Shown here in pieces: positions 15,045 to 39,857 of a stretch of DNA of 64,000 nucleotides; position 1 is the first letter of the stretch; each line of letters opens with the position of its first letter. The stretch is from a virus: IMG/VR virus record IMGVR_UViG_3300025834_000005; one strand, given 5' to 3'. Made by a program: the position numbers and the translations under genes. The notes under the pieces were generated by a model. It ran no database searches, was not told the DNA's origin, and saw only the letters and a program-made list of their open reading frames with translations.

Positions 15045-15131
15045 ATAGGCGTAGACCTGTAGTTGGTAGCAGTCCTGATTTGGGATCAGGCGTAGTAAAA
15101 TACCTCGTGAGTTCGAGCCTCACCGCTTATA
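15045..15131 (+). tRNA. Atypical tRNA(UGG), 87 nt with 16-nt variable region
   Basis: Acceptor ATAGGCG/CGCTTAT. Anticodon arm CCTGA-TTTGGGA-TCAGG. T arm GTGAG-TTCGAGC-CTCAC. The D arm is irregular. Confidence 0.5.
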
Positions 15132-15142
15132 CAAATTTTTAA

Positions 15143-15667
15143 ATGATTTATATGGAAAAAATTAATAATATTATGATTGTCGCTGTTAATAAAGGATATT
15201 ACGCCAATGAAAATGGTGATATATTCTCAGTGAAGAAAAAGTTAATATTAGGAAAGTCAAAAAATGGTTATCTTCGTTTTTCGATTAGATGCAATGGATA
15301 TAGAGAGGTTGTCTTCGTTCACAAATTTGTAGCATATTTAAAGTATGGCGACAAGATGTTTGAAGATAATATTGAGGTTAGGCATTTTAATGGCGATTCA
15401 TCAGATAATTCATTTGAAAATATATTACTTGGGACACACTCAGATAATATGCAAGATATTTCAAAAATAGTGCGGATAACAAAAGCCTTAATAGCATCAA
15501 AAAAAGTAAGGGCTTTTGATGACGACACTGTTAATGAAATATTAAATGATAGAAAATTTGGAATGACATATAAAGACCTTTGCGCTAAATATGATACGAG
15601 TAAGTCAACGTTGAGTTACTTTTTCAATCATGCATATTATAGTGGTCTCAGAGAATTGAAAGAGTGA
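15143..15667 (+). CDS. HNH (HNH_3/NUMOD4-type) homing endonuclease
   Basis: VHKFVAYLKYG..VRHFNGDSSDNSFENILLGTHSDN motif. The gene is inserted between tRNA(UGG) copies. Confidence 0.7.
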   Translation: MIYMEKINNIMIVAVNKGYYANENGDIFSVKKKLILGKSKNGYLRFSIRCNGYREVVFVHKFVAYLKYGDKMFEDNIEVRHFNGDSSDNSFENILLGTHSDNMQDISKIVRITKALIASKKVRAFDDDTVNEILNDRKFGMTYKDLCAKYDTSKSTLSYFFNHAYYSGLRELKE

Positions 15668-15673
15668 ATATAC

Positions 15674-15747
15674 AGGGTAGTTATGCAGAGACTATACAAC
15701 GCAAGTTTGGAACTTGCGGTTCGTGGGTTTGAATCCCACCTACCCTA
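15674..15747 (+). tRNA. tRNA-Pro(UGG), weak D stem
   Basis: Acceptor AGGGTAG/CTACCCT. Anticodon arm GCAAG-TTTGGAA-CTTGC. T arm GTGGG-TTTGAAT-CCCAC. Confidence 0.6.
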
Positions 15748-15768
15748 CAAATTATTAGTTTGTAATAT

Positions 15769-15841
15769 AGAGTAGTATATCAATTGGCAGATTACCGCAT
15801 TTGGGATGCGGAGGTTCTGGGTTCGAGTCCCAGTTACTCTA
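15769..15841 (+). tRNA. tRNA-Pro(UGG)
   Basis: Acceptor AGAGTAG/TTACTCT. Anticodon arm CCGCA-TTTGGGA-TGCGG. T arm CTGGG-TTCGAGT-CCCAG. Confidence 0.8.
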
Positions 15842-15872
15842 CTGATTATCAATTAGTTGATAGTTATTAAAT

Positions 15873-15947
15873 GGTGTTTGTAGCTTAAATGGATAAAGCG
15901 CATGCCTGTGAAGCATGTACATGCGAGATCGTACCTCGTCTAACACC
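15873..15947 (+). tRNA. tRNA-His(GUG)
   Basis: G-1 opposite C73. Anticodon arm CATGC-CTGTGAA-GCATG. The T loop is the variant ATCGTAC. Confidence 0.8.
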
Positions 15948-15967
15948 CTAATTTTAAATTAAAGATC

Positions 15968-16732
15968 ATGTATTACGTTGTACAGAAGAATGTTTTTAGA
16001 GAAGAAAATTACGATAATTTGATTATCGCTTTGAATCGGTTAGAGTTGCCTTATGAAATCGTTGATGTGCTACCATTCGTAGACACCTTCGAATTCAAGA
16101 CAACCAGAAAGGATGTATTTCCTTTTGGTGCTGTGAAAATGTCGAGAATTGCCAAAGAATTGGACTGGAATCCAGGCTCTCAATTGTGTGACAATCATGA
16201 TTATAACGTATATAGTAAGTATTATAAGGAGAACTTACTTAATTACGATTCAAAGATCATTAAATTCGGTGATGACTTCTTTCAAACAGAAAGGTTCTTT
16301 GCAAGACCAACATTAGATACGAAAGTGTTTACAGGTAAAGTATTCGACATGGGCGAGTGGATTGAATTCAGAGATAATTCCTTTGCCAATGGACATAGCA
16401 CTTTACTGAACGCCGATACAGAAATTCAGATTTCTTCTGTTAAGAACATTCAGAACGAAATAAGATTCTGGATTGTGAAGGGCGAAATCGCCACAGCAAG
16501 TCAGTATTCTCTGGGTGGAAGATTCTGTGTGAATGCAAACGTTGATCAATCGGCATATGACTTTGTAAACAGAATGATAAAGATATTCGAATTAAACGAC
16601 ACCTTTATCATGGATGCATGCCTTGTTAATGGCGAATACAAAATAGTTGAATGCGGTTGCACTAATAGTGCTGGCTTCTACAGAGCAGACATGCAAAAAC
16701 TGCTTATGAAATTGGAAGACGCTTTCAATTAA
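15968..16732 (+). CDS. ATP-grasp fold protein (R2K-clade/DUF4343-like)
   Basis: FFARPTLDTKVFTGKVF, EIRFWIVKGEIATASQY and FIMDACLVNGEYKIVECGCTNSAGFY match the phage R2K ATP-grasp pattern. Confidence 0.55.
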   Translation: MYYVVQKNVFREENYDNLIIALNRLELPYEIVDVLPFVDTFEFKTTRKDVFPFGAVKMSRIAKELDWNPGSQLCDNHDYNVYSKYYKENLLNYDSKIIKFGDDFFQTERFFARPTLDTKVFTGKVFDMGEWIEFRDNSFANGHSTLLNADTEIQISSVKNIQNEIRFWIVKGEIATASQYSLGGRFCVNANVDQSAYDFVNRMIKIFELNDTFIMDACLVNGEYKIVECGCTNSAGFYRADMQKLLMKLEDAFN

Positions 16733-16739
16733 TATAAAT

Positions 16740-16812
16740 TGTTTCGTGGTGTAATTGGTAACACGTCTGACTCTGAATCAGTTGAGTGCAGGTTCGATCC
16801 CTGCCGAAACAA
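16740..16812 (+). tRNA. tRNA-Gln(CUG)
   Basis: Acceptor TGTTTCG/CGAAACA. Anticodon loop CTCTGAA. T arm GCAGG-TTCGATC-CCTGC. Confidence 0.8.
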
Positions 16813-16822
16813 CTAAACTATA

Positions 16823-16896
16823 TTGCCCTGTTATGTAATGGTTAGCATACGACACTTTGAATGTCGGAGTCATGGTTCGAGTCCATGCAGGGCAAC
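16823..16896 (+). tRNA. tRNA-Gln(UUG)
   Basis: Acceptor TTGCCCT/AGGGCAA. Anticodon arm CGACA-CTTTGAA-TGTCG. T arm CATGG-TTCGAGT-CCATG. Confidence 0.85.
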
Positions 16897-16904
16897 ATTT
16901 TCAC

Positions 16905-16935
16905 TTGCATGTTATTTAAAAAATAACTACTTTTG
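16905..16935 (+). promoter_or_regulatory. Bacteroidota-type promoter
   Basis: cacTTGCATgttatttaaaaaataacTACTTTTGcat, 13 nt before ATG 16949. Confidence 0.5.
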
Positions 16936-16948
16936 CATAAAAAATTTT

Positions 16949-17152
16949 ATGAACTCAGAAAAATTATTGCTACAGATTAAGAAAGATTTAACACCGTTAG
17001 ATATTGGGAAGATAATTGTATTACCATGCAAGGGAGACCCAAGGGTACTACAAAATGAAGTATCGTTTGCAATAATGGGAGAGAATGAAGGCATTATTCA
17101 ATATATTGTAACTGTTGAGAAACTTAATAACAAAACCAATGGGAAACTATAA
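16949..17152 (+). CDS. Hypothetical small protein
   Basis: 67 aa from an internal ATG. The longer track ORF (16823) would run through tRNA-Gln. Confidence 0.5.
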   Translation: MNSEKLLLQIKKDLTPLDIGKIIVLPCKGDPRVLQNEVSFAIMGENEGIIQYIVTVEKLNNKTNGKL

Positions 17153-17540
17153 CCTATTCCTTGATGATTTTAGATCGCCAGAGGACGCTTTCTATTACAT
17201 GCGCAATAGCGATTATTTGAAACTTGAATGGGTAATCGTTCGAAGTTATAATGAGTTTGTGAGCTATATCGAGAAGAATGGTATGCCAGCTACGATTAGC
17301 TTCGACCATGATCTTGCCGATATTCATTATGAACAACAAACAAATATCAACTATGATAATGCTGACGATGATGAGAAGACTGGATATCATTGCGCTAAAT
17401 GGCTTATCGATTACACAATGGATAACGATGTTGAATTACCAGCATATATGTTGATACATTCAATGAATACAGTTGGTAGCCGAAACATTAAATCATTGTT
17501 TGAAAACTACAAGCATTTTGTAAAAAAAGGAGCATCATAA
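17139..17540 (+). CDS. cREC-like (cyclic-phosphate-processing receiver-like) domain protein
   Basis: NLFLDDFR..ISFDHDLA..TGYHCAKWL..IHSMNTVG resembles the cREC family linked to RNA-repair systems. ATG 17139 is preferred over TTG 17115. Confidence 0.45.
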   Translation: MGNYNLFLDDFRSPEDAFYYMRNSDYLKLEWVIVRSYNEFVSYIEKNGMPATISFDHDLADIHYEQQTNINYDNADDDEKTGYHCAKWLIDYTMDNDVELPAYMLIHSMNTVGSRNIKSLFENYKHFVKKGAS

Positions 17541-17556
17541 TGATACTCCTTTTTTG
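17525..17556 (+). terminator. Intrinsic terminator
   Basis: aaggag-catcataatgata-ctcctt followed by TTTT. Confidence 0.6.
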
Positions 17557-17588
17557 TTTATATTAGTATTTATTATAAATTTGATATT

Positions 17589-18587
17589 ATGAGTGATAAG
17601 TATAGCAAAAATAGGCTCTTCGAAATGATGGGCAGGGTGGATAATAATTTCAATGAGGAGTCAACAGCCTCTGATGGTGGCTATCATAGTAAGCATGTAA
17701 ATAATCCACAATCAGCTGGAAAAGAAATACAGAATTGGCTAAATGGCATAGGTCAGGAAAAAACAACGCAAATATATTATAGAATGGCTGACGAATTTAG
17801 AGACATAGTAATTGATGACTCTGATCTATCATATATGCGTTCAGAATCGCCTGATGATTTGGATTATGGCTTTGTTGAAGCATTGGCATGTTATAAGCAT
17901 GACTATAATGAGGATAGTCCTTATATGTACTTCGTTAATTTCTTACTAAGCACTAAATATAGATTCAATCCAAAAACCACATTTAGTTATCGTGCAGAAG
18001 ACTTGGATGAGAAAGGTAAAGCTATTTATAATACTCTTTCAAATGGTGATGACCATTATGGTGAATTGTATGAAGATTTGCTTTATGATCAGGCTGAACA
18101 AGATGATAACAATAATGACCGCAACGGTTATGATGAAAGCGTTAAAAAAAGACTCTCAACTATTTTTGAAATTAAAAACATCGAAGCTCAGAGAAATGGT
18201 AAGAAGAAAGTTTTAAACGAAACTAAGCTTTTTGGCATGATTAATAAACTTGAAAGTAAACGCAAGCTCAATGAATGGGGTGATGAAAATGACTCTGATT
18301 ACGAGAATGATTCAAGTAATTATAGTGAACAAGGTGATTATGATGATCACGAGGGCAGTAGCAGCAATTATGGCGCAAATGACCGTGAAGCCGACAATAC
18401 AGATCATATGGATGAGGAATTATCAACAGAAGACCCTCATTTTCAAATAGGGTCTTTGAGACAGAAACTTAACTCTCATTTAGATCAGGTTCAAAGACTG
18501 TTCACTTATCTGGATGAAAAACCTTCAATAGAAGCTGTTAAGGGGTTTGTAGGAAGCGTTCTAAATGGTTGGGAAAAAGAAAAATAA
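17589..18587 (+). CDS. Highly acidic protein with N-terminal RLFEMMGRV motif
   Basis: 332 aa with Asp/Glu/Asn-rich tracts. N-terminus KNRLFEMMGRVDNNFNE. The motif ttagtatttattataaat lies upstream. Confidence 0.65.
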   Translation: MSDKYSKNRLFEMMGRVDNNFNEESTASDGGYHSKHVNNPQSAGKEIQNWLNGIGQEKTTQIYYRMADEFRDIVIDDSDLSYMRSESPDDLDYGFVEALACYKHDYNEDSPYMYFVNFLLSTKYRFNPKTTFSYRAEDLDEKGKAIYNTLSNGDDHYGELYEDLLYDQAEQDDNNNDRNGYDESVKKRLSTIFEIKNIEAQRNGKKKVLNETKLFGMINKLESKRKLNEWGDENDSDYENDSSNYSEQGDYDDHEGSSSNYGANDREADNTDHMDEELSTEDPHFQIGSLRQKLNSHLDQVQRLFTYLDEKPSIEAVKGFVGSVLNGWEKEK

Positions 18588-18626
18588 AAATATTTTAAAC
18601 TTTTTTGAATTATTTACTATTTATAT

Positions 18627-18656
18627 TTGCAGGTAATAAAAAAAGCATTACCTTTG
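18627..18656 (+). promoter_or_regulatory. Promoter of cassette B (TTGCAG-N-TACCTTTG)
   Basis: tatatTTGCAGgtaataaaaaaagcatTACCTTTGtaccg. Confidence 0.5.
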
Positions 18657-18709
18657 TACCGAAATTAATATTTACTTCCTTTAGGGAATCAAAAAAAAGA
18701 ATAGAAACG

Positions 18710-18844: not shown

Positions 18845-18871
18845 GTAGAGTTTAATAATAATATTAAATAA

Positions 18872-18902
18872 AACCTCCAGCATACGTGTTGGAGGTTTTT
18901 TG
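18872..18902 (+). terminator. Intrinsic terminator of cassette B
   Basis: aacctcca-gcatacgtgt-tggaggtt followed by TTTT. Confidence 0.7.
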
Positions 18903-32531: not shown

Positions 32532-35399
32532 ATGATAAATGGGATAAAAGAAAGCTTTGAGTACCAAAATCTTAGCACATCAGCAAAACAAGACGTATTC
32601 AATGTTTTCAAAGCAGCTTATGAAAAGGCAACAGGCTCGGCGTGGGACTTTAACAAATTCAATAGCAGAGCATATGGGTGGCAATTTTTTGGTGAAGAAG
32701 ATGGCTATGTTACATTAAGACCACAAAATAGCGGTTACTATAAATTAACAGGTGTTGCAGGCAATCCAAGATCAATTCTACGTGGACTTGGCGAAATAAT
32801 GGGTAAAAATATTCCTGTTTGGGGTATGGTTAGTCAAGATATCTCAAATATTTTAACAAGAAAATTTGAGTTTAGAAAGCCTAATAAAATTGAAACGATT
32901 GCGATTTTTAAAATGATATCATCAAATGTATTTGGTGACGTAAAATATACGGTAAATAAGGATGGTGGCGTAACATTTGATTACGCAGACGTTGGCTCAA
33001 CAACAAAATACTTTGTAGGCAATAAGCCATATTTCTCAAAGGTTCGACAGGAATTATTCAAGACTGTTAAGAATAAACTCGGTTTATCTAAATATCTAAA
33101 TGAGGGTGAGGAATTGGATGAAAAAAGAGCTGTTGACGATTATACTGTGAACTCGTATGACGAGATAATGAAAGTTATTAATACGATTGGTTATAAGAAG
33201 CTGTACATCTCTTTTAGAGAAACCGTTAACGTATCAACAATCAATACTAATAATAAGTACAATACTCCAACAGGCTTATATTGTTATCCTCTAATATCAT
33301 ATAAGTCAAAAATAGAAAATGCTGATAATATTAAGGATTTTACAAATTGTTTTCCTTATATGAGTAGCTCAAAATATATTCACATGTTCTCGTTGGAGAG
33401 TGATGAGAATGTATTATTTTCATCAGCATTTAGTAAGAGTCAGATCAATGGCTATGTTGAAAAAATTAGAGATTATTATCCCACAAATGATAATATTCAG
33501 GAATATTGTCTACAATGGTTTAACGGAACATTTAAGGGATATGGTTCATACACAGCTGTTCAGGGCAATTTGGTAAGCGGAATCTGGTTATTTTTATATG
33601 CTATTGCAGATCAAATAAAAAGAGGTAGTGTGGCTCATTCTGTTACAATTCTCGCAGCATGGCTTGGGATAGACGGATTTGTTGACGATGGTTGCCTTGG
33701 GTATATTCACGAAGCCGAAAAATGTCAGGCTGTATTCTTTAATAATAATTTCAGAAAGATCATAGGTAATTATCAGATATTGTCTGCTCATGATGATAGA
33801 GGTGACGTTCCATTAAAATTTGATGCCCCAAAGGATGTTCAGAATGGCGATGGTAGCGAACAATTTGATGCCTATAGGAAGCAAATTGAGAAAAAATTTA
33901 ATACCATAGACATTAGTTTCGAAGACTCATATAAAAAAATCAAATCAAATATAAAAGCCGAAATACCTAATGTTATAAGTGTTAATGGTATATGGAATTA
34001 TTATGATAGGATGTGTAAAAAATCCTTAAAAAATATAAATTATAGTGAAATATATGATAACGATGATAAAGCAAAAGCATATTATAATACACTGATTAAT
34101 AATAAATTTAATATTATATACATCGTTCATAACAGCTCAACATTTGCTATAGCCAGAAGTGATGCTGGTGACTTATTTGCGGCATCATCAAATATGGTAG
34201 AGCCTTTAGCTGCTTATAAATTAGACAAATCAAGACTTCAAGACTATTCGTCAACATTTTTAGATTATTATATCAATGCTGTTCATAAACATGCATACAG
34301 TTTAGATAGCGTTGAACGATTTGATAATAATGGACAAGCTTTTGCTACGAATTTTAATGGCGACTTACTTACGTTTGATGCTAATGGTAATGAGATACCA
34401 AAAGAAAATGTTATTATCAATTTCGATAATAATATAAATTTGGCAAAGAAGATGAACTACCTTTTAGGCGAACACAGATTTGCTCGTATCGATGGATTCA
34501 ACATTGCTAATAATACATTAGCTGTAGCGTATTCAGCAAATTCAAGTGATAAGTATTTTATAAACAAAAAGGGCGAAAAAGACCTTGTTATTTTGTCACG
34601 ATATGATTTAAATATGATGAGCGTAGATGTACGTGCCATATATATCAATCAGCTGATAGATGAGAATAAGTATTATGAGGTAAATTCATTCGATGAGGGA
34701 AATGAACATTTAGCAAGAGCGACAACATTCGACGGCGATACAAATTTTATCAATATGGATGGACACCCAAGCGTGTCTGGATTATCTGAGGATGATGTTA
34801 ATGGCTTTAGTGCTCGTACATTAGCAGCTTATATGAATACAATTATTGGTAAGTCATTATACAAATATGCTCGAAAAGTTAATTCATATCTTGATTTTAA
34901 TGCCGATGCGTTATTTGGTGACGCTGAGGTTTATAAGTGCGAAATAGAAAATGATGTTGCGATATACTCTACTCTTAGTGGTGGTATTCCTGATATTGAT
35001 CTTACTAAAGCAACTAATTGGAATAGTACGGACGAAAATGCCATCATGTTGAATACTAAATTTAAATCATTAAGATTTAATTACGCTTATAAGTATGCCG
35101 ATGACGTATATCAGGCAAAAATGCCCGATAAAGGATATGTATTTTATAATGGAGAAGGTAAGCCAACTTTGGAAGGAATCGATATAAACAGTTACGATCT
35201 TGGTAATGGAGAGAGAGCAGCATATTTTAACACCAAATTGAATACAGATGTATTTCATTCTGTCTATGGATTTAATGTCAACGATATGGCTGAATTTAGT
35301 TCTTTAAATAAATATGGATACATTAATAAGAACGGCGAGACATTCGATGATGAGAAGGGTAACTTTAAAATAACAATAGCTGACATCGAAAACGCATAA
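32532..35399 (+). CDS. Large hypothetical protein (955 aa)
   Basis: Uninterrupted ORF with the motif aagtatttattaaaaaa upstream. No family recognised. Confidence 0.65.
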   Translation: MINGIKESFEYQNLSTSAKQDVFNVFKAAYEKATGSAWDFNKFNSRAYGWQFFGEEDGYVTLRPQNSGYYKLTGVAGNPRSILRGLGEIMGKNIPVWGMVSQDISNILTRKFEFRKPNKIETIAIFKMISSNVFGDVKYTVNKDGGVTFDYADVGSTTKYFVGNKPYFSKVRQELFKTVKNKLGLSKYLNEGEELDEKRAVDDYTVNSYDEIMKVINTIGYKKLYISFRETVNVSTINTNNKYNTPTGLYCYPLISYKSKIENADNIKDFTNCFPYMSSSKYIHMFSLESDENVLFSSAFSKSQINGYVEKIRDYYPTNDNIQEYCLQWFNGTFKGYGSYTAVQGNLVSGIWLFLYAIADQIKRGSVAHSVTILAAWLGIDGFVDDGCLGYIHEAEKCQAVFFNNNFRKIIGNYQILSAHDDRGDVPLKFDAPKDVQNGDGSEQFDAYRKQIEKKFNTIDISFEDSYKKIKSNIKAEIPNVISVNGIWNYYDRMCKKSLKNINYSEIYDNDDKAKAYYNTLINNKFNIIYIVHNSSTFAIARSDAGDLFAASSNMVEPLAAYKLDKSRLQDYSSTFLDYYINAVHKHAYSLDSVERFDNNGQAFATNFNGDLLTFDANGNEIPKENVIINFDNNINLAKKMNYLLGEHRFARIDGFNIANNTLAVAYSANSSDKYFINKKGEKDLVILSRYDLNMMSVDVRAIYINQLIDENKYYEVNSFDEGNEHLARATTFDGDTNFINMDGHPSVSGLSEDDVNGFSARTLAAYMNTIIGKSLYKYARKVNSYLDFNADALFGDAEVYKCEIENDVAIYSTLSGGIPDIDLTKATNWNSTDENAIMLNTKFKSLRFNYAYKYADDVYQAKMPDKGYVFYNGEGKPTLEGIDINSYDLGNGERAAYFNTKLNTDVFHSVYGFNVNDMAEFSSLNKYGYINKNGETFDDEKGNFKITIADIENA

Positions 35400-35487
35400 T
35401 ATGAGAAATTAATTCCCTATAATAAACATTGATAATCAATTACTTAAAATTATTATCAATATTTTTTGTATTTTTTATAGAAAAATG

Positions 35488-35518
35488 TTTGGCGGTTGAG
35501 AAAATTGTATTACTTTTG
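35488..35518 (+). promoter_or_regulatory. Promoter of cassette D (TTTG-N19-TACTTTTG)
   Basis: atgTTTGgcggttgagaaaattgtatTACTTTTGtgccg. Confidence 0.5.
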
Positions 35519-35622
35519 TGCCGTGATCAACAAATGAAGCGACGAGATTTTATTTTAACACTTCTGAAACTTTTATGAAAATCACACTATTTATAAGTCT
35601 AAAAGCATTAATAAAAACGAAA

Positions 35623-35769
35623 ATGAAAAAGAACATATCATCATCAGTAACCATATCGGGAATAACAACGAGATCATCTCGCAGTTGTAATGGTATGTCT
35701 ATGTTCAATAGAATTTTTACAGGCATTAATACAGGCATACAAAAAATAGATTGGGTTCTCTTAATGTGA
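35623..35769 (+). CDS. Leader mini-ORF D (48 aa from ATG 35623; the frame is open from 35575)
   Basis: MKKNISSSVTISGITTRSSRSCNGMSMFNRIFTGINTGIQKIDWVLLM. A 36-codon block uses only N,I,S,T,G,R,C,M,F plus one V, the identities of the tRNAs downstream. A 14-codon uORF at 35534..35578 precedes it. Confidence 0.5.
   Translation: MKKNISSSVTISGITTRSSRSCNGMSMFNRIFTGINTGIQKIDWVLLM
35747..35757 (+). promoter_or_regulatory. Candidate antiterminator segment of cassette D
   Basis: TAGATTGGGTT matches 10 of 11 nt of the terminator 3' arm TAGATCGGGTT. It can pair with the 5' arm AACCCGATCTA and lies 10 nt upstream of the mini-ORF stop. Confidence 0.5.
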
Positions 35770-35792
35770 GAATATAAAACCTTAAAACAGGA

Positions 35793-35828
35793 AACCCGAT
35801 CTACCGCAAATAGATCGGGTTTTTTTGT
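35793..35828 (+). terminator. Intrinsic terminator of cassette D
   Basis: aacccgatcta-ccgcaaa-tagatcgggtt (11 bp stem) followed by T7. Confidence 0.8.
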
Positions 35829-35853
35829 TTGATAGCAGTAAGGCTATCGTTTC

Positions 35854-35870
35854 TTTGACATGTTGGAATT
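35854..35870 (+). promoter_or_regulatory. Conserved 17-nt motif TTTGACATGTTGGAATT before the first tRNA of array D
   Basis: Identical to 18916..18932. Lies 8 nt before the tRNA at 35878. Confidence 0.4.
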
Positions 35871-35877
35871 AAAATAA

Positions 35878-35962
35878 GCAAGGCTGATCGAGTGGTCGAA
35901 GGTAGGTGGCTGCAAACCATCTGGAAGATTTTCCCTCATTGGTTCGAATCCAATGCCTTGCT
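35878..35962 (+). tRNA. tRNA(GCA, Cys anticodon, U73) with class II shape (16-nt variable arm)
   Basis: Acceptor GCAAGGC/GCCTTGC. Ser-like D arm ATCGAGTGGTCGAAGGT. Anticodon arm GGTGG-CTGCAAA-CCATC. Variable arm T-GGAA-GATT-TTCC-CTC. T arm ATTGG-TTCGAAT-CCAAT. Confidence 0.7.
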
Positions 35963-35974
35963 CAAAATTTATAT

Positions 35975-36047
35975 TGGCTCTTAGCTCATTTGGTAGAGTT
36001 CTTCCCTGATACGGAAGCGGTGGTGGGTTCGAATCCCACAGAGCCAA
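35975..36047 (+). tRNA. tRNA-Ile(GAU)
   Basis: Acceptor TGGCTCT/AGAGCCA. Anticodon arm CTTCC-CTGATAC-GGAAG. T arm GTGGG-TTCGAAT-CCCAC. Confidence 0.9.
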
Positions 36048-36115
36048 CAACAAAGAAATAAAAAAAGTTATTTAATTTTGTAACCTTTTAAAAGTTTCTT
36101 CGTATAACTAAAAAT

Positions 36116-36198
36116 GGAAGGAGTCCGAATGGACGAGGACACGGTCTTGAAAACCGCTGGGTGTAAAAGCTTTATGGGTTCGATTCCCTTTTCTTCCG
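36116..36198 (+). tRNA. tRNA-Ser(UGA)
   Basis: Class II. Acceptor GGAAGGA/TTCTTCC. Anticodon loop CTTGAAA. T loop TTCGATT. Confidence 0.8.
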
Positions 36199-36462
36199 CA
36201 TAGCTGTTTGATCGACAGAATCATTCAGTCTGATATTGATAAGTAGTGTTAGTAATTATTCTGTTTATTTGCTAATAATATTTATTAAGTATCGTTTCCG
36301 AATTGCTTAAGATGCTGTCATTAAAATTCTGTTGGGACAATTAGAAAGGATGTATTGAACTACCCGATTATAAAAGGTCTCCTGAGATTTTGTGAATCTT
36401 TGTAATAAGGTTCGTGGTCGTGAGTACGAGGCTCACATCGGAAATAAAATTTTGCTTCAATT
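36199..36462 (+). other. 264-nt non-coding stretch inside the tRNA island (several hairpins; decayed tRNAs or unknown RNA)
   Basis: No credible ORF. Hairpins ctgt-ttgatcg-acag and gtgag-tacgagg-ctcac (T-arm-like but with a degenerate loop). Confidence 0.25.
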
Positions 36463-36536
36463 GGGGAGGTAGCTCAGTGGTAGTTAGCGGTGGAGTGAAG
36501 CCCCACAGGTCGTCGGTTCGATCCCGACTCTCCCCA
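36463..36536 (+). tRNA. tRNA-Phe(GAA)
   Basis: Acceptor GGGGAGG/TCTCCCC. Anticodon loop GTGAAGC. T arm GTCGG-TTCGATC-CCGAC. Confidence 0.8.
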
Positions 36537-36618
36537 CGAAAAACAATGGCGTTTAGTACTGTTACTTCACAGGAAATGAAACAAACACAGTACTTCTATC
36601 TACCTTGTTTTTATTATT

Positions 36619-36692
36619 GCAGGTGACGCATAAGTGGTGGTGCATCAGGTTGCCAATCTGAAATAGAGACGGATCGTTCCCGTTCACCTGCT
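36619..36692 (+). tRNA. tRNA-Gly(GCC)
   Basis: Acceptor GCAGGTG/CACCTGC. Anticodon arm TCAGG-TTGCCAA-TCTGA. T arm GACGG-ATCGTTC-CCGTT. Confidence 0.8.
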
Positions 36693-36706
36693 CCACAAAT
36701 TAAATT

Positions 36707-36792
36707 GCAGTAATCGCATAGTTGGTCGATTGCGCCAGCCTTCCAAGCTGGAAAGAGAAATCACGTCGAGGGTTCGAATCCCTCTTACTGCT
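36707..36792 (+). tRNA. tRNA(UCC, Gly anticodon, U73) with 16-nt variable region
   Basis: Acceptor GCAGTAA/TTACTGC. Anticodon arm CCAGC-CTTCCAA-GCTGG. Variable region AAAGAGAAATCACGTC. T arm GAGGG-TTCGAAT-CCCTC. Confidence 0.7.
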
Positions 36793-36806
36793 CAAAATTA
36801 TTAAAG

Positions 36807-37079
36807 ATGAAACTGAAAAATTTATTGAAAGCTTTGTGGGGTCAGTTACCAGTGCAAAGAGCATTTAGGAATTTCTTTATCACTGGAAATGCTCGTGGCA
36901 TGTTTGACATAAGAAGTCACCAACGAGAAGATGGAAGTCCTAAAGTTATGTATAACACCAAAGCCACTGCACAAAAAGCAGCTGATAGTATGGGTAAAAA
37001 AATGGATAGACATTTCTCGGTTTATAAATGCATCTTTTGTGATGGATACCACTTAGGTAAGAATAGAGATAATAAATAA
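36807..37079 (+). CDS. Hypothetical small protein (C-terminal YKCxFCDGYHLG)
   Basis: 90 aa ORF between tRNA genes. Confidence 0.55.
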   Translation: MKLKNLLKALWGQLPVQRAFRNFFITGNARGMFDIRSHQREDGSPKVMYNTKATAQKAADSMGKKMDRHFSVYKCIFCDGYHLGKNRDNK

Positions 37080-37089
37080 TACGATATAT

Positions 37090-37164
37090 TGCGGAATGGA
37101 CTGGAGGTGGCTTCCAGCATGGTCTCATAAGCCAATCACACAGGTTCGAATCCTGTTTCCGCAT
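37090..37164 (+). tRNA. tRNA(CAU), Met or Ile2 undetermined
   Basis: Acceptor TGCGGAA/TTCCGCA. Anticodon loop CTCATAA. T arm ACAGG-TTCGAAT-CCTGT. 4-nt acceptor-D connector. Confidence 0.65.
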
Positions 37165-37177
37165 CTAAATTAAATAA

Positions 37178-37588
37178 ATGGTTAATAATAAAAATTGTAT
37201 TCACTGTGGAAATAGTTTATCTGGTCAACAGTATAAATTTTGTTCGAGTAAATGTAAAAATTCGACTTATCAAAATAAAAAAAGAAGAGAATTTAAAGAT
37301 ATTACAGGTATTTCATTTCAATCATATAAAGGCATAAAGTTAAAACTATTACTTATTTTGGAATTTGGCGGTGCTTGTATTGGATGTGGATATAAAAAGA
37401 ATCTATCAGCATTAGAATTTCATCATCTTGACCCTAATGAGAAGGAATTTACAATTGATGTGAGAACATTGTCGAATCGCAATATTGATAAGATAAGGAA
37501 TGAGCTAAAAAAATGCATACTTGTTTGCTCTAATTGTCATCAGGAAATACATTATCCGCATTTAGATATTGAAACATTAAATTTATAA
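37178..37588 (+). CDS. HNH endonuclease (homing-endonuclease-like)
   Basis: N-terminal Cys pairs. LEFHHLDPNEK..LVCSNCHQEIH HNH core. Inserted between tRNA(CAU) copies. Confidence 0.75.
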   Translation: MVNNKNCIHCGNSLSGQQYKFCSSKCKNSTYQNKKRREFKDITGISFQSYKGIKLKLLLILEFGGACIGCGYKKNLSALEFHHLDPNEKEFTIDVRTLSNRNIDKIRNELKKCILVCSNCHQEIHYPHLDIETLNL

Positions 37589-37598
37589 TTTATACATA

Positions 37599-37829
37599 AT
37601 GATTGAAAGTAATTATAACTCATACGGAAAATTGAAAACAGATAAAGAAACAAAAATTAAAGCTGGCGATACTGTTGAATACAGCTATGCCGATAACGAC
37701 CCAAATGATAAAAATAAAAAAATAATCATAACATTAAGAGGTATTTGGGATGGTGAAAAGGTCTGCTTTGATGATAAGGAACATACTGTTGTAAGAACAA
37801 CATTTTGGTTAACAAAAATAGAAGAATAA
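37599..37829 (+). CDS. Hypothetical protein
   Basis: 76 aa ORF. Confidence 0.55.
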   Translation: MIESNYNSYGKLKTDKETKIKAGDTVEYSYADNDPNDKNKKIIITLRGIWDGEKVCFDDKEHTVVRTTFWLTKIEE

Positions 37830-37830
37830 C

Positions 37831-37962
37831 ATGGAAAGTAAAGACGAAATAATTGAGGAAAAGACAGAAGACCCTATTAATAACTTTGAGGGCGATGGTA
37901 AATTTCATAAATTAAGACTTAAGAATACACATCTTACGCCAAAGAAGAAAAAACGCAAATAG
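37831..37962 (+). CDS. Small basic-tailed hypothetical protein (43 aa)
   Basis: ATG 2 nt after the upstream stop. Ends in KKKKRK-TAG, touching the next tRNA. Below the track size cutoff. Confidence 0.4.
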   Translation: MESKDEIIEEKTEDPINNFEGDGKFHKLRLKNTHLTPKKKKRK

Positions 37963-38034
37963 CGATATTGGTACTGGTTTCCAGTCACGATCTCATAAGT
38001 CGTTGATATGCAGGTTCGATTCCTGTTATCGCCA
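37961..38034 (+). tRNA. tRNA(CAU) with 1:72 A-C mismatch
   Basis: Acceptor AGCGATA/TATCGCC. Anticodon arm ACGAT-CTCATAA-GTCGT. T arm GCAGG-TTCGATT-CCTGT. Unusual D arm (ACTGG-TTT-CCAGT). Confidence 0.65.
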
Positions 38035-38047
38035 CATTAAAACACAC

Positions 38048-38132
38048 TGCGGAATAGTGTAATTGGTAACACACGAGGCTCATAACCTTGAGACATTAAA
38101 TGCTTGTATTGGTTCGAGTCCAATTTCCGCTT
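38048..38132 (+). tRNA. tRNA(CAU) with 17-nt variable region
   Basis: Acceptor TGCGGAA/TTCCGCT. D arm GTGT-AATTGGTA-ACAC. Anticodon arm CGAGG-CTCATAA-CCTTG. T arm ATTGG-TTCGAGT-CCAAT. Confidence 0.65.
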
Positions 38133-38144
38133 CTATATTTACTT

Positions 38145-38218
38145 GGTCGTGTGGCGCAATTGGTTAGCGCAAGATGCTTATATCATCGAGGTTGTGGGTT
38201 CGAGTCCCACCATGACCA
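38145..38218 (+). tRNA. tRNA-Ile(UAU)
   Basis: Acceptor GGTCGTG/CATGACC. Anticodon loop CTTATAT. T arm GTGGG-TTCGAGT-CCCAC. Confidence 0.8.
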
Positions 38219-38229
38219 CAATAATTAAT

Positions 38230-38302
38230 GCTTCCGTAGCTCAGTTGGTAGAGCAATTGACTGTTAATCAATTGGTCACAGGTTCAAGTCCTGTCGGGAG
38301 CG
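38230..38302 (+). tRNA. tRNA-Asn(GUU)
   Basis: Acceptor GCTTCCG/CGGGAGC. Anticodon arm ATTGA-CTGTTAA-TCAAT. T arm ACAGG-TTCAAGT-CCTGT. Confidence 0.9.
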
Positions 38303-38309
38303 CAAAGAT

Positions 38310-38404
38310 ATCAGTGTACTCAAGTGGCTGACGAGAAGTCGTCGAGAAGACGATTAGGATGGGAAAGACTCCCATCCTCATGGGTTCGAATCCCATCACA
38401 GGTA
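38310..38404 (+). tRNA. Ser-type class II tRNA-like gene, 95 nt, odd anticodon loop (CGAGAAG, anticodon AGA if 7-nt loop)
   Basis: D arm CTC-AAGTGGCTGAC-GAG. Anticodon hairpin GTCGT(C)-GAGAA-(G)ACGAT. 8-bp variable arm GGATGGGA/TCCCATCC. T arm ATGGG-TTCGAAT-CCCAT. Confidence 0.5.
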
Positions 38405-38412
38405 TTTCATAT

Positions 38413-38493
38413 GCTTAGTTAGCCAAGTGGAAAGGCAGCACGCTGTTAACGTGCCGAAGAAATTCATCGTAGGTTCGATCCCTGCACTGAGCG
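38413..38493 (+). tRNA. tRNA(GUU, Asn anticodon, G73) with class II shape (14-nt variable arm)
   Basis: Acceptor GCTTAGT/ACTGAGC. D arm GCC-AAGTGGAAA-GGC. Anticodon arm GCACG-CTGTTAA-CGTGC. Variable arm C-GAA-GAAA-TTC-ATC. T arm GTAGG-TTCGATC-CCTGC. Confidence 0.7.
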
Positions 38494-38510
38494 CAAATAA
38501 ATAATGTATT

Positions 38511-38777
38511 ATGAATGATGACACTGGAAGGTATTATATTACCGATTTCAAAACGAAAAGAACGTTTTGTGTAGAGCCGATTGGCGATGATCGAACGAAT
38601 TGGGGCGATGTAGACCCTGTAACTAAGAAGCTTACAGGTGATTATGGAAAGAAACATCGTGGAAGTATTGACGAAGCTGATTCAATAATCACAAAGGAGA
38701 ATGGGTTCAAGAATATTGTCACATTACCAGCTGGTGAATCACCTCAAAGTTATATCGATAATTTGCTAAAATTATAG
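38511..38777 (+). CDS. Hypothetical protein
   Basis: 88 aa ORF. The antisense ORF over the tRNAs is rejected. Confidence 0.55.
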   Translation: MNDDTGRYYITDFKTKRTFCVEPIGDDRTNWGDVDPVTKKLTGDYGKKHRGSIDEADSIITKENGFKNIVTLPAGESPQSYIDNLLKL

Positions 38778-38808
38778 TTGCATATTTAATATATTATGAC
38801 TAAATTTG
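38778..38808 (+). promoter_or_regulatory. Bacteroidota-type promoter
   Basis: tagTTGCATatttaatatattatgacTAAATTTGcag, closely resembling the 14590-14625 promoter region. Confidence 0.5.
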
Positions 38809-38828
38809 CAGTCTAAAATATATTAGAT

Positions 38829-39053
38829 ATGATAGTAAAATATGAACATCATGGAACATTGGTAAATGTAGACATGGATTTAAAAGGATTGCATCGTGAG
38901 CATTGTTTATGCTTTCAAGGTTGTAATTTCTTCAAGCCCGAAGATCATGCAAATAATTGCGAAATCGCCAACGCTGTTTTCAAAAATTGTGTTGACTTCA
39001 ACATTGTTACTCCTGTTTGGGAATGCCCTAAGTTTGAAAAGGAGACTGTATAA
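38829..39053 (+). CDS. Cys-rich small protein
   Basis: 74 aa with 7 Cys (HCLCFQGC..NNC..NC..WEC). Confidence 0.55.
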   Translation: MIVKYEHHGTLVNVDMDLKGLHREHCLCFQGCNFFKPEDHANNCEIANAVFKNCVDFNIVTPVWECPKFEKETV

Positions 39054-39361
39054 TGGCATTAGAAAAATTAATTTTTGCAGAGGATATATTCGACAACCTC
39101 TTTAAAGGAAAAGTATGTACGATTCGACAGGGTCGTAGAGACGTCGAACTTGGTGATCTTTTATGTGAATCACTTGAAGAACATAGATTGAAAACTGTTA
39201 ATGTTATAATGGTTATTTATTGCAGTCTTCAAGATATTCCAGATGAATTTGTTGAGAATGATGGATATCTTGAGCATTATGATATGTTGGCTAAAATGAG
39301 AAGATTCTATCCAGATATTGAATTAACAACCGAGTGCTCAGTAATTATATTCGAGGTATGA
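39053..39361 (+). CDS. ASCH-like (PUA-fold) domain protein
   Basis: FKGKVCTIRQGRRDVELGDLL and a C-terminal ..VIIFEV fit the ASCH pattern. Start overlaps the upstream stop. Confidence 0.4.
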   Translation: MALEKLIFAEDIFDNLFKGKVCTIRQGRRDVELGDLLCESLEEHRLKTVNVIMVIYCSLQDIPDEFVENDGYLEHYDMLAKMRRFYPDIELTTECSVIIFEV

Positions 39362-39624
39362 AAGAAGTTAATGAGCCAGCAAGTTCCGAATTTATAAATG
39401 AATCTGGACTTGATTTTAAAAACATTAGTTCAGAAAGATATAGACAATATGTTTTTCCTAATGGCGAGAATTTGATCATAAATCAGCCTCTTTATCTAAA
39501 CGTTAGTCCGAGTGGCGGACATAGATTATTTGACAATTTCGGTAACAGCTATTATGTTCAGCCTCAAGAGGGTTGGTATATTAAATGGCAAGCAAAATTT
39601 GGATTACCAAACTTCGTTAAATAG
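39358..39624 (+). CDS. Hypothetical protein
   Basis: ATGA overlap with the upstream stop (ATG 39358 preferred over GTG 39334). Stop TAG, with an in-frame TAA two codons later. Confidence 0.55.
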   Translation: MKEVNEPASSEFINESGLDFKNISSERYRQYVFPNGENLIINQPLYLNVSPSGGHRLFDNFGNSYYVQPQEGWYIKWQAKFGLPNFVK

Positions 39625-39690
39625 AAAGACTAAAATGTTGGAGTAACATAATCCGTGTGCCAACTACCTATAATGGGTTTACGGAAATAC

Positions 39691-39763
39691 GCCAGCGTAA
39701 TTCAGTTGATAGAATAGCGCACTTGTAATGCGAATGTCGTGGGTTTGATCCCCTCCGCTGGCT
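39691..39763 (+). tRNA. tRNA-Thr(UGU)
   Basis: Acceptor GCCAGCG/CGCTGGC. Anticodon loop CTTGTAA. T loop TTTGATC. Confidence 0.85.
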
Positions 39764-39771
39764 CTTAAATT

Positions 39772-39857
39772 GCCTTTTTCGCTTAGTTGGTCGATAGCAC
39801 CTGATTAGTAATCAGGATTTCTCCAGAAACACATTGGTTCGAACCCAATAAAAGGCT
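39772..39857 (+). tRNA. tRNA(AGU, Thr anticodon, A34) with class II shape (16-nt variable arm)
   Basis: Acceptor GCCTTTT/AAAAGGC. Anticodon arm CCTGA-TTAGTAA-TCAGG. Variable arm A-TTTC-TCCA-GAAA-CAC. T arm ATTGG-TTCGAAC-CCAAT. Confidence 0.7.

Follow-up and report, generated by a model that had tools for sequence, protein, structure and literature searches.

Bacterial class II tRNAs (Ser, Leu and Tyr) have a variable stem-loop, a D stem that usually has 3 bp, additional nucleotides following G18G19, and an R15-Y48 pair; the tRNAs described here share these features, but have the anticodons, discriminators and first acceptor pairs of Thr, Gly, Asn, Cys, Met, Ile and Lys tRNAs. Bacterial tRNA-Tyr (E. 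coli sequence) has a similar tail of about 3 nt and a 3-bp variable stem, whereas the tRNA-Ser species of the phages themselves have a much longer arm that is joined differently to the body. In allo-tRNAs (Mukai et al. 2017, PMC5389517), the acceptor/T stems measure 8/4 or 9/3 instead of the 7/5 found here, and the D arm is tRNA-Sec-like, with predicted or shown serine identity instead of cognate-type acceptors; one allo-tRNA (L153, Ile-UAU, G73) was met in an Acidobacteria genome. Nematode nev-tRNAs (Hamashima et al. 2012, PMC3333845) also combine class II bodies with Gly or Ile anticodons, but they are eukaryotic and leucine-charged, and the five tRNAs confirmed here do not have the A73 needed for leucine. 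The selC* tRNA-Cys (PMC5389517), which keeps U73 and the GCA anticodon on a long-armed body and is charged by CysRS, is by analogy the best precedent for the long Cys tRNA of this locus, but its acceptor branch is of the tRNA-Sec type (8/4-like), its arm is long, and it is cellular and tied to selenium metabolism. Defence-resistant phage tRNAs (T5 tRNA-Lys versus PARIS, PMC11464382; PMC10264068) likewise keep the anticodon while differing in structure from the host copy, but through substitutions in the anticodon stem-loop rather than the variable region. Engineered hairpin-tagged tRNAs (PMC7590224) show that a small variable-region hairpin is compatible with translation, although these are artificial constructs on an allo-tRNA chassis. 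A literature search found no published description of the mini-arm tRNAs reported below.

The window (the whole 64,000-nt stretch of DNA analysed, from a phage of about 328 kb) had been read by hand folding as containing six class I tRNAs with class II-like variable regions; all six lie on the + strand. Five of these (Cys-GCA, Gly-UCC, Met-CAU, Asn-GUU and Thr-AGU) are called at the same positions by both ARAGORN and the Rfam tRNA covariance model (44.9-60.0 bits, gathering score 29), with variable regions of 14-17 nt by ARAGORN segmentation. The Rfam model places an insertion of 10-14 nt within the variable region of every one, so that model-based folding does not yield the ordinary 4-5 nt loops that might have been expected had the hand folds been wrong. 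ARAGORN draws a 3-bp D stem in four of the five (Cys, Gly, Asn and Thr), not in three as first thought, and the extra stems have the 3-4 bp originally described except that of Gly. Position 73 is U, U, U, G and U in Cys, Gly, Met, Asn and Thr, respectively.

The long tRNA-Cys(GCA) (35878-35963, 86 nt as called, 44.9 bits) has a 16-nt variable region (35922-35937, u GGAA gauu UUCC cuc), a 3-bp D arm whose loop is GAGUGGUCGAA, and U73; no short Cys partner is present within the window, and a close homologue (contig L011) carries this arm with a GAAA loop. The long tRNA-Gly(UCC) (36707-36793, 87 nt) has G1-C72, C2-G71, U73 and a 16-nt variable region (36752-36767, aaa GA gaaa UC acguc) with a stem of just 2 bp, which recurs unchanged in two syntenic relatives (L004 and L007) plus 27 further contigs; this is the long family with the highest sequence conservation in the clade. 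Except in the D loop and variable region, long Gly matches E. coli tRNA-Gly(UCC) (verified against the glyT sequence), with which it shares its D stem. A short UCC tRNA at 20035 is a doubtful glycine partner because of its A1-U72 pair, its G73 and its poorly formed anticodon stem. The long tRNA-Met(CAU) (38048-38133, 86 nt) has a 17-nt variable region (38091-38107) with a CAU/AUG stem, a U1.U72 mismatch, U73 and A15-U48, and a near-identical copy is found in contig L033; a 1-72 mismatch is present in 7 of 12 long Met tRNAs. Upstream lies a short tRNA-Met(CAU) (37961-38035, +; ARAGORN; Rfam 28.8 bits) with an A1.C72 mismatch. For the long tRNA-Asn(GUU) (38413-38494, 82 nt, G73), which has a 14-nt variable region (38455-38468, c GAA gaaa UUC auc), the five-arm cloverleaf is the minimum-energy fold, and its L033 homologue has compensatory changes in the anticodon stem together with an identical variable region; its partner is a canonical short tRNA-Asn(GUU) (38230-38303, +; ARAGORN; Rfam 75.7 bits). 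The long tRNA-Thr(AGU) (39772-39858, 87 nt), with G1-C72, C2-G71, U73, the D arm UCGCUUAGUUGGUCGAUAGCA and a 16-nt variable region (39817-39832, a UUUC ucca GAAA cac), belongs to a large long-Thr family, and a canonical short tRNA-Thr(UGU) (39691-39763, +; Rfam 56.4 bits, not called by ARAGORN) is located directly upstream. Class I partners are thus present, as the sequence-only reading held, for Met, Asn, Thr and Pro, in the last case in the form of two short tRNA-Pro(UGG) genes (15674-15748 and 15769-15842, +; ARAGORN and Rfam).

The sixth candidate, a Pro-UGG tRNA-like sequence (15045-15131, +), is of uncertain membership: it is not called by ARAGORN, its Rfam score of 25.2 bits is below the gathering score, and no homologue with a long variable region was found in IMG/VR. 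Hand folding gives it a 7-bp acceptor stem (15045-51 with 15124-30), A1-U72, A73, and a variable region laid out like the others (15091-15106, c GUA guaaaa UAC cuc), but the fold is non-canonical, with 5 nt instead of 2 nt between the acceptor and D stems. Codons matching the long tRNAs are regularly used in the open reading frames of the window, and the proposal that the long tRNAs are meant to decode is accepted for the other five, which would serve on the ribosome. Genes for HNH and GIY-YIG endonucleases are scattered among the tRNA genes of the arrays.

Comparison of families shows covariation in the extra stem to be as strong as in the four standard stems. Among 28 long Thr-UGU sequences from IMG/VR, pairing in the extra stem reaches 95%, and each of its three pairs occurs as four pair types with both bases changing, as in the other four helices; in long Ile-GAU all three pairs have compensatory changes and are 100% paired, while the remaining tRNA is nearly invariant. 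Individual extra stems, being so short, form no better than shuffled sequence, so the evidence for the stem is comparative. The earlier suggestion that insertions are merely tolerated in the variable loop is therefore too weak, since this covariation places the arm under selection. In 51 of 55 long tRNAs the variable region ends in a base that pairs with position 15, as G15-C48 or A15-U48, and within the Ile, Lys and Met families both partners change together. Long tRNAs have a mean D loop of 10.6 nt versus 8.85 nt in short ones, and a 3-bp D stem in 44/55 versus 38/163; the T arms (stem and loop) and anticodon loops of the long tRNAs are fully canonical. Apart from long Thr and long Gly, the tRNAs with precisely the D arm of these two families are genuine tRNA-Ser(GGA/CGA) species from many bacteria, so a class II scaffold may have been recruited, or the core may have co-adapted to an inserted hairpin.

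From these sequence comparisons, the five confirmed genes are probably decoding tRNAs that are charged with their cognate amino acids and have a class II-like core. Their fold retains the 7-bp acceptor, the 5-bp T stem, the 7-nt anticodon loop, the contact of G18G19 with the T loop and the R15-Y48 pair, and adds to this core an enlarged D loop, a mostly 3-bp D stem and a small variable-region hairpin, a structural element of the fold maintained by selection.

The same layout (0-1 nt, a stem of 2-4 bp, a tetraloop that is often GNRA, and a tail of about 3 nt ending at Y48) is carried by distant relatives of the parent phage, and a search of other phage tRNA arrays, as had been recommended, found it in three groups of cultured phages and in some 120 further contigs of metagenomic or viral origin. 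Relatives found via a protein of about 32% identity, among them L004 and L007, have kept syntenic long Gly, Thr, Ile and Lys tRNAs. The arm is seen with at least eight amino-acid identities and in phages whose hosts belong to different phyla, and the recurrence of the architecture with compensatory changes in dozens of unrelated contigs argues that it is more than chance. In many contigs the long tRNA is the sole member of its family nearby, and a short Thr accompanies just 15 of 54 long Thr tRNAs within the same partial locus.

The generalization that long arms in bacteria are restricted to Leu, Ser, Tyr and Sec does not strictly hold. Five Cytophagales genomes, including one contig of 4.28 Mb, have a long tRNA-Thr(UGU) with a 14-15 nt arm beside an orthologous DUF349 gene, and another such tRNA is located among housekeeping genes (NAD kinase, POR and NamZ) in a Kiritimatiellae genome. 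Thr was the only family returned with the arm in a scan of GTDB. About one tenth of the class I tRNAs in these phage contigs have the arm, a frequency biased by the choice of part of the loci by sequence motifs, and the arm is almost absent from bacteria; a purely structural reading leaves this abundance in phages versus rarity in bacteria unexplained.

This distribution would be accounted for if the arm were an adaptive change of shape, by which normally decoding tRNAs escape host enzymes that cut or modify tRNA or the phage's own shutoff nuclease, or are recognized by a phage protein. Such a role, raised as a tag in the sequence-only reading, is possible, though we think it unlikely. Long and short tRNAs of the same family occur side by side in the window, in several relatives and in the cultured Rhodococcus phage Trina, and armless tRNA-Leu with A73, frequent in the same phages (21 short versus 40 long), would be the reverse swap by the same strategy. 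Changes in the anticodon stem-loop do let phage tRNAs defeat tRNA-cutting defences (PMC10264068; PMC11464382), and a bacterial Schlafen protein cleaves tRNAs for Lys-UUU, Met-CAU and Val-UAC, families with long versions here (PMC13056530). The cut site of AriB, between residues 40 and 41, is beside the exit point of the arm, and a gene for a T4 Rnl1-type RNA ligase is found near the Lys tRNAs of relative L004. However, nearly all tRNAs are targeted by some toxin, which makes the overlap of families weak evidence. To our knowledge, variable arms do not protect tRNAs from any nuclease or toxin, the known escapes mapping to the anticodon stem-loop. The scarcity of short Thr beside long Thr and the normal chromosomal setting of the latter in Cytophagales and Kiritimatiellae also count against this explanation.

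Partial recoding of sense codons, by an arm and core that attract a class II-tRNA synthetase (that for Ser, or for Leu in the A73 families), is considerably less probable. Precedents exist in allo-tRNAs (PMC5389517) and nematode nev-tRNAs (PMC3333845), and the main serine identity element is the size of the arm, not its sequence (PMC9976931); moreover, U73 and G73 are both regarded as compatible with serylation of allo-tRNAs (Mukai et al., PMC5389517), so U73 alone has no power to exclude SerRS. However, genuine tRNA-Ser in the same phage contigs has an arm of 4-9 bp, a tail that is almost always 1 nt, and usually G73, as against 2-4 bp and about 3 nt in the long tRNAs, whose hairpin, being too short and differently joined to the body, would not recruit seryl-tRNA synthetase. 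The acceptor features of the long tRNAs track the anticodon family and not tRNA-Ser, other acceptor pairs varying freely: long Thr has U73 in 65/66, G1-C72 in 66/66 and C2-G71 in 65/66, and long Gly has each of these in 19/19, whereas genuine tRNA-Ser has G2-C71 in 58/61 and A3-U70 in 51/61, pairs that are absent here. Discriminators are likewise held within families (G73 in 13/14 long Asn, U73 in 9/9 Cys, A73 in 8/8 Ile and 9/9 Lys), which bears out the initial observation that cognate discriminators are kept. The anticodon is, furthermore, an established major identity element for most of the synthetases concerned (reviewed in PMC9976931), and insertion of serine by a chromosomal, syntenic tRNA-Thr(UGU) would be costly. 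Thus the deliberate mischarging with serine that had been suggested is unlikely from arm geometry and acceptor features. In the A73 families (Ile, some Lys and Met), A15-U48 is combined with a Leu-like D loop, so some leucylation may occur there; in long Ile and some long Lys, A73, A15-U48 and the D loop GAAUUGG together resemble E. coli leucine identity elements. Base 73 of the window's five fits leucine in none.

Glycosyltransferases (several) and a dATP/dGTP diphosphohydrolase-type domain are also encoded in the window. Together with the use of Gly-tRNA-Gly by phage Mu Mom to modify DNA (PMC13219725) and the high conservation of Gly-UCC, these hints of modified DNA could suggest that the long tRNAs supply activated amino acids exclusively to a process outside translation, such as DNA or cell-wall modification, the arm being a handle for a transferase or a barrier to the ribosome. 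We consider this highly improbable, because the amino-acid identities bearing the arm are too many for a single modification pathway, the T and anticodon loops and T stems are fully canonical, the long tRNA is often its family's only nearby member, and the chromosomal Thr copy resembles a housekeeping gene. Equally improbable are neutral insertions, decayed pseudogenes or a DNA-level shield against homing endonucleases between tRNA genes, to which the interspersed HNH and GIY-YIG genes and the degenerate look of the Pro-like sequence could point, given the conservation of the layout across phages of different host phyla and bacterial chromosomes and the other helices, all intact and covarying; this group of readings is contradicted for five of the six by the extra-stem covariation of Ile-GAU and Thr-UGU.

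Cognate-charged decoding tRNAs with a class II-like core therefore remain the preferred interpretation, and a class II-like variable arm on class I anticodons, as originally noticed, holds for five of the six candidates. As a normal chromosomal gene in Cytophagales and Kiritimatiellae, at least the long Thr family needs no phage-specific explanation. The mini-arm design is that of old tRNA sub-families, which occur widely among large phages and, in the case of Thr(UGU), also on bacterial chromosomes.

The window contains 34 tRNA genes by ARAGORN and 33 by the Rfam tRNA model (RF00005), and both call tRNA-Cys(GCA), tRNA-Gly(UCC), tRNA-Met(CAU), tRNA-Asn(GUU) and tRNA-Thr(AGU) at 35878, 36707, 38048, 38413 and 39772, the starts assigned by hand folding in the sequence-only reading. 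All five belong to the tRNA family (44.9, 60.0, 56.5, 53.4 and 55.0 bits, respectively, versus the RF00005 gathering score of 29 bits), and in the Rfam alignments their acceptor, D, anticodon and T arms stay in register, while each variable region receives an unaligned insertion of 10-14 nt and not a loop of 4-5 nt, in agreement with the hand folds. As segmented by ARAGORN, the variable regions measure 16 nt in tRNA-Cys (u GGAA gauu UUCC cuc), 16 nt in tRNA-Gly (aaa GA gaaa UC acguc), 17 nt in tRNA-Met (including CAU uaa AUG), 14 nt in tRNA-Asn (c GAA gaaa UUC auc) and 16 nt in tRNA-Thr (a UUUC ucca GAAA cac). These tRNAs with class I anticodons have class II architecture, with variable regions of 14-17 nt and a stem-loop of 2-4 bp, on a canonical body: a 7-bp acceptor stem, a 5-bp T stem, a 7-nt anticodon loop with U33 and purine 37, a UUCGA-type T loop, G18G19 and R15-Y48. 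They are called long here, and class I tRNAs with an ordinary loop of 3-6 nt are called short. The acceptor and T stems are arranged as 7/5 in all five (ARAGORN and Rfam alignment), not as the 8/4 or 9/3 of allo-tRNAs. A 3-bp D stem of the Ser/Leu type, previously noted in several of these genes, is present in four of the five; that of tRNA-Met has 4 bp. An intron is an unlikely source of the extra nucleotides: the anticodon loops are intact at 7 nt, and the additional segment, between the anticodon and T stems, is itself a conserved hairpin.

The sixth gene of the sequence-only reading, a tRNA-Pro(UGG) at 15045, could not be confirmed, being uncalled by ARAGORN and scoring 25.2 bits with RF00005, below the gathering score. 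A hand fold gives it a good acceptor stem of 7 bp and shows the common layout in the variable region (c GUA guaaaa UAC cuc), with a spacer of 5 nt, not the usual 2 nt, between the acceptor and D stems. In IMG/VR, its anticodon-arm pattern matched coding sequence and short tRNA-Pro genes of the ordinary kind, and nothing else; the candidate is without comparative support because this search yielded no long homologue. Directly upstream of the Pro-like sequence is a strong terminator-like hairpin (15010-15040, CCCCUUUAAU...AUUAAAGGGG) followed by a U run.

To judge from its covariation, the extra arm is a well-defined, selected mini helix inside a normal fold. Long tRNA-Ile(GAU) genes (n = 6) have an almost invariant body, yet their three extra-stem pairs change on both sides and are always paired (CUC/GAG, GUC/GAC, GUG/CAC and GCC/GGU). 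In long tRNA-Thr(UGU) from IMG/VR (n = 28) the extra stem is 95% paired, with four pair types at each of three positions, and covaries as much as the four standard helices; the signal is lost when the partner is shifted by 1-3 columns. The arm typically consists of 0-1 nt, 2-4 bp, a tetraloop (GAAA, GCAA, GUAA or UUCG) and a tail of about 3 nt with a terminal pyrimidine. This last nucleotide acts as position 48: in 51 of 55 long tRNAs it forms G15-C48 or A15-U48, and positions 15 and 48 switch together within long families. The D stem has 3 bp in 44 of 55 long versus 38 of 163 short class I tRNAs, and the D loop is longer in long tRNAs, with 4-5 nt after G18G19 in 47 of 55. The case for a helix rests on covariation because an individual stem, being so short, does no better than shuffled sequence: the mean best stem is 2.9 bp in real versus 2.5 bp in shuffled variable regions, and no single case is significant.

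Other phage tRNA arrays, to which the sequence-only reading had pointed, contain the same architecture, in relatives of this phage, in metagenomic contigs and in cultured phages. A 955-aa protein encoded upstream of the tRNA-Cys gene has homologues (approximately 32% identical) at loci with a shared order of reductase, VWA protein, large protein and tRNA array, and the arrays of these relatives hold long tRNA-Gly(UCC), tRNA-Thr(UGU) or tRNA-Thr(CGU), tRNA-Ile(GAU) and tRNA-Lys(UUU). The long tRNA-Gly variable region as a probe recovered two viral and 25 metagenomic contigs. In a survey of 37 sources, window included, variable-region length is bimodal (3-6 or 10-19 nt) for Asn-GUU, Cys-GCA, Gly-UCC, Ile-GAU, Lys-UUU, Met-CAU, Thr-NGU and Val-UAC, and a long variable region never occurs in Gln, Glu, His, Pro, Trp, Ala or most Arg tRNAs. 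A second, independent probe, the D arm common to the long Thr and long Gly families, identified 95 IMG/VR contigs, mostly of 30-500 kb, in which the motif is carried by 48 distinct long tRNA-Thr(UGU); about one-tenth of the remaining class I tRNAs of these contigs are also long, including Pro, His, Glu, Trp and Ile-UAU. The idea that a long tRNA is always a back-up beside a short one was discarded, a short tRNA-Thr being present in the same partial locus for only 15 of 54 long tRNA-Thr.

Among cultured phages, a tRNA-Met(CAU) of 90-92 nt is found in Xanthomonas phages XaC1 and XbC2, Erwinia phage Kaldavass and the E. coli Asteriusvirus group; in XaC1 (L037, 28115-28206) and Escherichia phage Sharanji (L038, 12001-12090) its variable region is 18-20 nt long and ends in CACAYC. 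Rhodococcus phage Trina (L143, 3905-4072) has adjacent short and long tRNA-Thr(UGU) genes, the long one with an unstructured 11-nt variable loop (AAUACCACACC). Long tRNA-Gly had no blastn match among deposited phages.

The long tRNAs carry the acceptor features of their own anticodon family and not those of tRNA-Ser. Position 73 of the Cys, Gly, Met, Asn and Thr tRNAs of the window is U, U, U, G and U. Across the long families, Thr has G1-C72 in 66 of 66, C2-G71 in 65 of 66 and U73 in 65 of 66, fixed pairs in contrast to the freely varying acceptor pairs 3-7; Gly has G1-C72, C2-G71 and U73 (19/19); and position 73 is G in Asn (13/14), U in Cys (9/9), A in Ile (8/8) and Lys (9/9), A with C1-G72 in Pro (3/3) and C in His (3/3). 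Short isoacceptors in the same contigs have the same preferences. Long tRNA-Gly has the full bacterial glycine set, matching E. coli tRNA-Gly(UCC) outside the D loop and variable region, including U8 C9 and the G-U-A-U/U-U-A-C D stem. The short UCC tRNA of the window (20035) has A1-U72 and G73; therefore, the long gene at 36707 is probably the phage's real decoder of GGA and GGG.

At the acceptor end, the long tRNA-Met at 38048 has a U1.U72 mismatch and the short tRNA-Met(CAU) at 37961 has A1.C72; mismatches at 1-72 are frequent in long tRNA-Met (U.U in 5/12, C.A in 2/12). Such a mismatch is a hallmark of bacterial initiator tRNA. The long tRNA-Met genes are without the three G-C pairs of the initiator-type anticodon stem. 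The gene at 37090-37165, which like that at 19082-19154 has an anticodon loop of irregular size according to ARAGORN, shares the acceptor stem of long tRNA-Met and would have a CAU anticodon on the assumption of a 7-nt loop.

The D-arm motif of long Thr and Gly tRNAs was also used to scan GTDB, with a single genome for each species. Most matches, in CPR bacteria and Gammaproteobacteria, are genuine tRNA-Ser(GGA/CGA) with GGAGAGG acceptor stems and G73; thus, the long Thr and Gly families share an exact D arm with tRNA-Ser. As proof of a Ser/Leu origin the 3-bp D stem is weakened, the U13.U22 D stem of long Gly being found in E. coli tRNA-Gly(UCC) as well, and a derivation of the long families from Ser, Leu or Tyr through a single anticodon step was set aside, as nearly all anticodons are such neighbours and those of Lys and Glu are not. 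Eleven GTDB matches are long tRNA-Thr(UGU) with U73. Five are from Cytophagales (L149, 4796-4880; L203, 6268-6351; L181; L182; L163), with variable arms of 14-15 nt. Two of these lie on contigs of 4.28 Mb (Spirosomataceae) and 344 kb (a second Cytophagales contig), and the other three genomes include Fibrella and Hymenobacter; the tRNA gene directly adjoins an orthologous DUF349 gene in all five, with pyridoxamine-phosphate oxidase nearby in three and no integrase at these loci. The same variant, also with an arm of 14-15 nt, occurs in two Kiritimatiellae genomes, in one of them among genes for NAD kinase, 2-oxoacid:ferredoxin oxidoreductase and NamZ, and in Verrucomicrobia and Lentisphaeraceae genomes (L197, 1225-1310; L164; L173; L191). 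The last two of the eleven (contigs of a Clostridia MAG and a Bacteroides MAG) look like binned phage DNA.

The synteny in Cytophagales therefore indicates that at least one bacterial order inherits a class II-like tRNA-Thr(UGU) on its chromosome, and the initial premise that long arms are confined to Leu, Ser, Tyr and Sec is not strictly true. Because the gene is inherited on chromosomes, charging of the long Thr(UGU) family with threonine is very likely. The exact variable-region pattern of long tRNA-Gly is absent from the GTDB genomes. Candidatus Acidoferrum (L153) has a UAU-anticodon tRNA with a 21-nt variable arm, G73 and the D-arm motif of long Thr and Gly, which fits the published allo-tRNAs of Acidobacteria.

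The source, a jumbo phage, encodes a nearly full complement of tRNAs. Its 328-kb contig is present in several metagenomes, and the products encoded in the window (33% G+C) include HNH and GIY-YIG endonucleases, ribonucleotide reductase and leucine-rich-repeat proteins of the BspA type. When 35000-41000 was compared with deposited phages by megablast, the result was only short matches to ordinary tRNAs and no close relative, and an IMG/VR protein-pattern search with the 955-aa gene returned zero relatives. The 10 kb on each side of the window encode no aminoacyl-tRNA synthetase or obvious tRNA enzyme, with one faint match to a nucleotidyltransferase. A small protein with a YqeY domain (GatB C-terminal-like, tRNA-binding; 39877-40272) starts 19 nt past the long tRNA-Thr(AGU) and is absent from that position in the syntenic relatives L004 and L007. 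Genes of the HNH/GIY-YIG homing-endonuclease type lie in and around the tRNA arrays (15143-15667, 20592-21527, 37178-37588 and 50162-50977), and an ATP-grasp protein of the R2K clade (15968-16732) is encoded between tRNA-His and tRNA-Gln. L004 has a gene for a T4 Rnl1-type RNA ligase, of the tRNA repair type (1-550), approximately 2.4 kb upstream of a Lys tRNA cluster; no counterpart was seen in the window. A protein with an N-terminal dATP/dGTP diphosphohydrolase domain (50970-51833), together with a series of genes for glycosyltransferases and one for a methyltransferase (41620-46011), may indicate modified phage DNA or surface sugars.

Several other tRNAs of these phages are unusual. In a reversal of the long class I pattern, tRNAs with leucine anticodons (UAG, CAG) and A73 have an ordinary 5-nt loop, in the window (19671-19744) and in the loci L014 (1819-1894), L017 (2007-2081) and L007 (15952-16024); across both contig sets, 21 tRNA-Leu are short versus 40 long. 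A few short tRNAs with Ser (UGA/CGA) or Tyr anticodons have A73 or odd acceptor stems. A CUA-anticodon tRNA of the amber suppressor type, with its CCA end encoded, is at 25652-25726, and 33 large ORFs of the window end in 26 TAA, 6 TGA and 1 TAG, which fits avoidance or reassignment of TAG. A wobble A outside tRNA-Arg(ACG), unusual in bacterial systems, is found in three window tRNAs: the long Thr-AGU at 39772, Leu-AAG at 19755 and Ser-AGA at 38309. Among the genes missed by ARAGORN are 24063-24134 (53.5 bits with Rfam; UUU anticodon in the loop CCUUUAA, with C at 33 and an unusual T arm) and a tRNA-Ser(UGA)-like gene at 36116-36197, which scores 35.9 bits with the tRNA-Sec model, below its threshold of 47.

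The best-supported reading of the sequence evidence is that the five long tRNAs of the window have a class II-like core but decode in the ordinary way and receive their cognate amino acids. Their mini arm would be part of the tRNA fold, and may have arisen by recruitment of a class II scaffold, or by an insertion to which the D loop co-adapted, locking it in. Cognate decoding leaves without explanation the abundance of long tRNAs in large phages, often beside a canonical copy, and also the short tRNA-Leu with A73.

An adaptive role of the arm, as a disguise of shape or a handle, is a live rival. In its broadest form, which we consider unlikely, large phages would systematically swap tRNA class, putting a mini arm onto class I tRNAs and taking the arm off tRNA-Leu, and so separate phage from host tRNAs; such a swap could help phage tRNAs to evade host-shutoff nucleases or immunity directed at tRNA, or could let phage factors use them selectively. 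Defences that cut tRNA are defeated by phage tRNAs (PMC10264068, PMC11464382), and the AriB cut site (40/41) adjoins the point where the arm emerges. The link to nuclease evasion is a circumstantial overlap with families known to be targeted, and no such role has to be invoked for the chromosomal Thr copies. Against a disguise, moreover, we know of no enzyme that a variable arm blocks.

Deliberate mischarging with serine, raised in the sequence-only reading, now appears less likely than cognate charging. Genuine tRNA-Ser in the same contigs have G2-C71 (58/61), A3-U70 (51/61) and mostly G73, and their arms have 4-9 bp followed by a single nucleotide, with two exceptions. The long class I arms have 2-4 bp, mostly with a 3-nt tail, and the tRNA-Ser combination of G73 with G1-C72, G2-C71 and A3-U70 is absent from the window's five, 2-71 being C-G in Thr and Gly. 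Serine identity is marked by the size of the arm, and unpaired bases at its foot also count in class II recognition (PMC9976931); by this arm-size rule, a short, differently attached arm therefore argues against serylation. U73, for its part, is regarded as compatible with SerRS in allo-tRNAs (PMC5389517), and the A73 families of relatives (long Ile and some long Lys) resemble leucine identity elements in having A15-U48 and a GAAUUGG D loop. A73 is absent from all five tRNAs of the window, among which the long tRNA-Met combines A15-U48 with U73. The codons that the five read are regularly used in window genes. A use outside translation, and a neutral or DNA-level origin for an arm that covaries as a helix, are likewise less likely.

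Textbooks and reviews restrict long arms to tRNA-Ser, tRNA-Leu, bacterial tRNA-Tyr and tRNA-Sec, the arm being the main mark for charging with serine. In the literature compared (non-canonical tRNAs, allo-tRNAs, nev-tRNAs and tRNA identity), with most subscription journals outside the search, no description was found of 7/5 tRNAs of class I identity with a mini variable arm in phages, or of any tRNA-Thr from Bacteroidota or the PVC group with a long arm. A mini arm is borne by many other identities and is widespread in large phages, while long tRNA-Thr(UGU) is fixed on Cytophagales chromosomes and also present in Kiritimatiellae, Verrucomicrobia and Lentisphaeraceae genomes. Annotators should not throw out tRNAs of 80-90 nt with class I anticodons. 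Long tRNAs are natural examples of changed tRNA identity or architecture, and their mini arm marks how short an arm can become before the serine signal is likely lost. Cultured systems, namely the tRNA-Met of approximately 90 nt in Asteriusvirus and XaC1 (for E. coli phages Sharanji or G17, at OR545507 95373-95462) and the short and long Thr pair of Trina (NC_042040, 96672-96839), make these questions testable. Should the arm prove to shield the tRNAs of phages against host defence, the contest over tRNA would have gained a new route.
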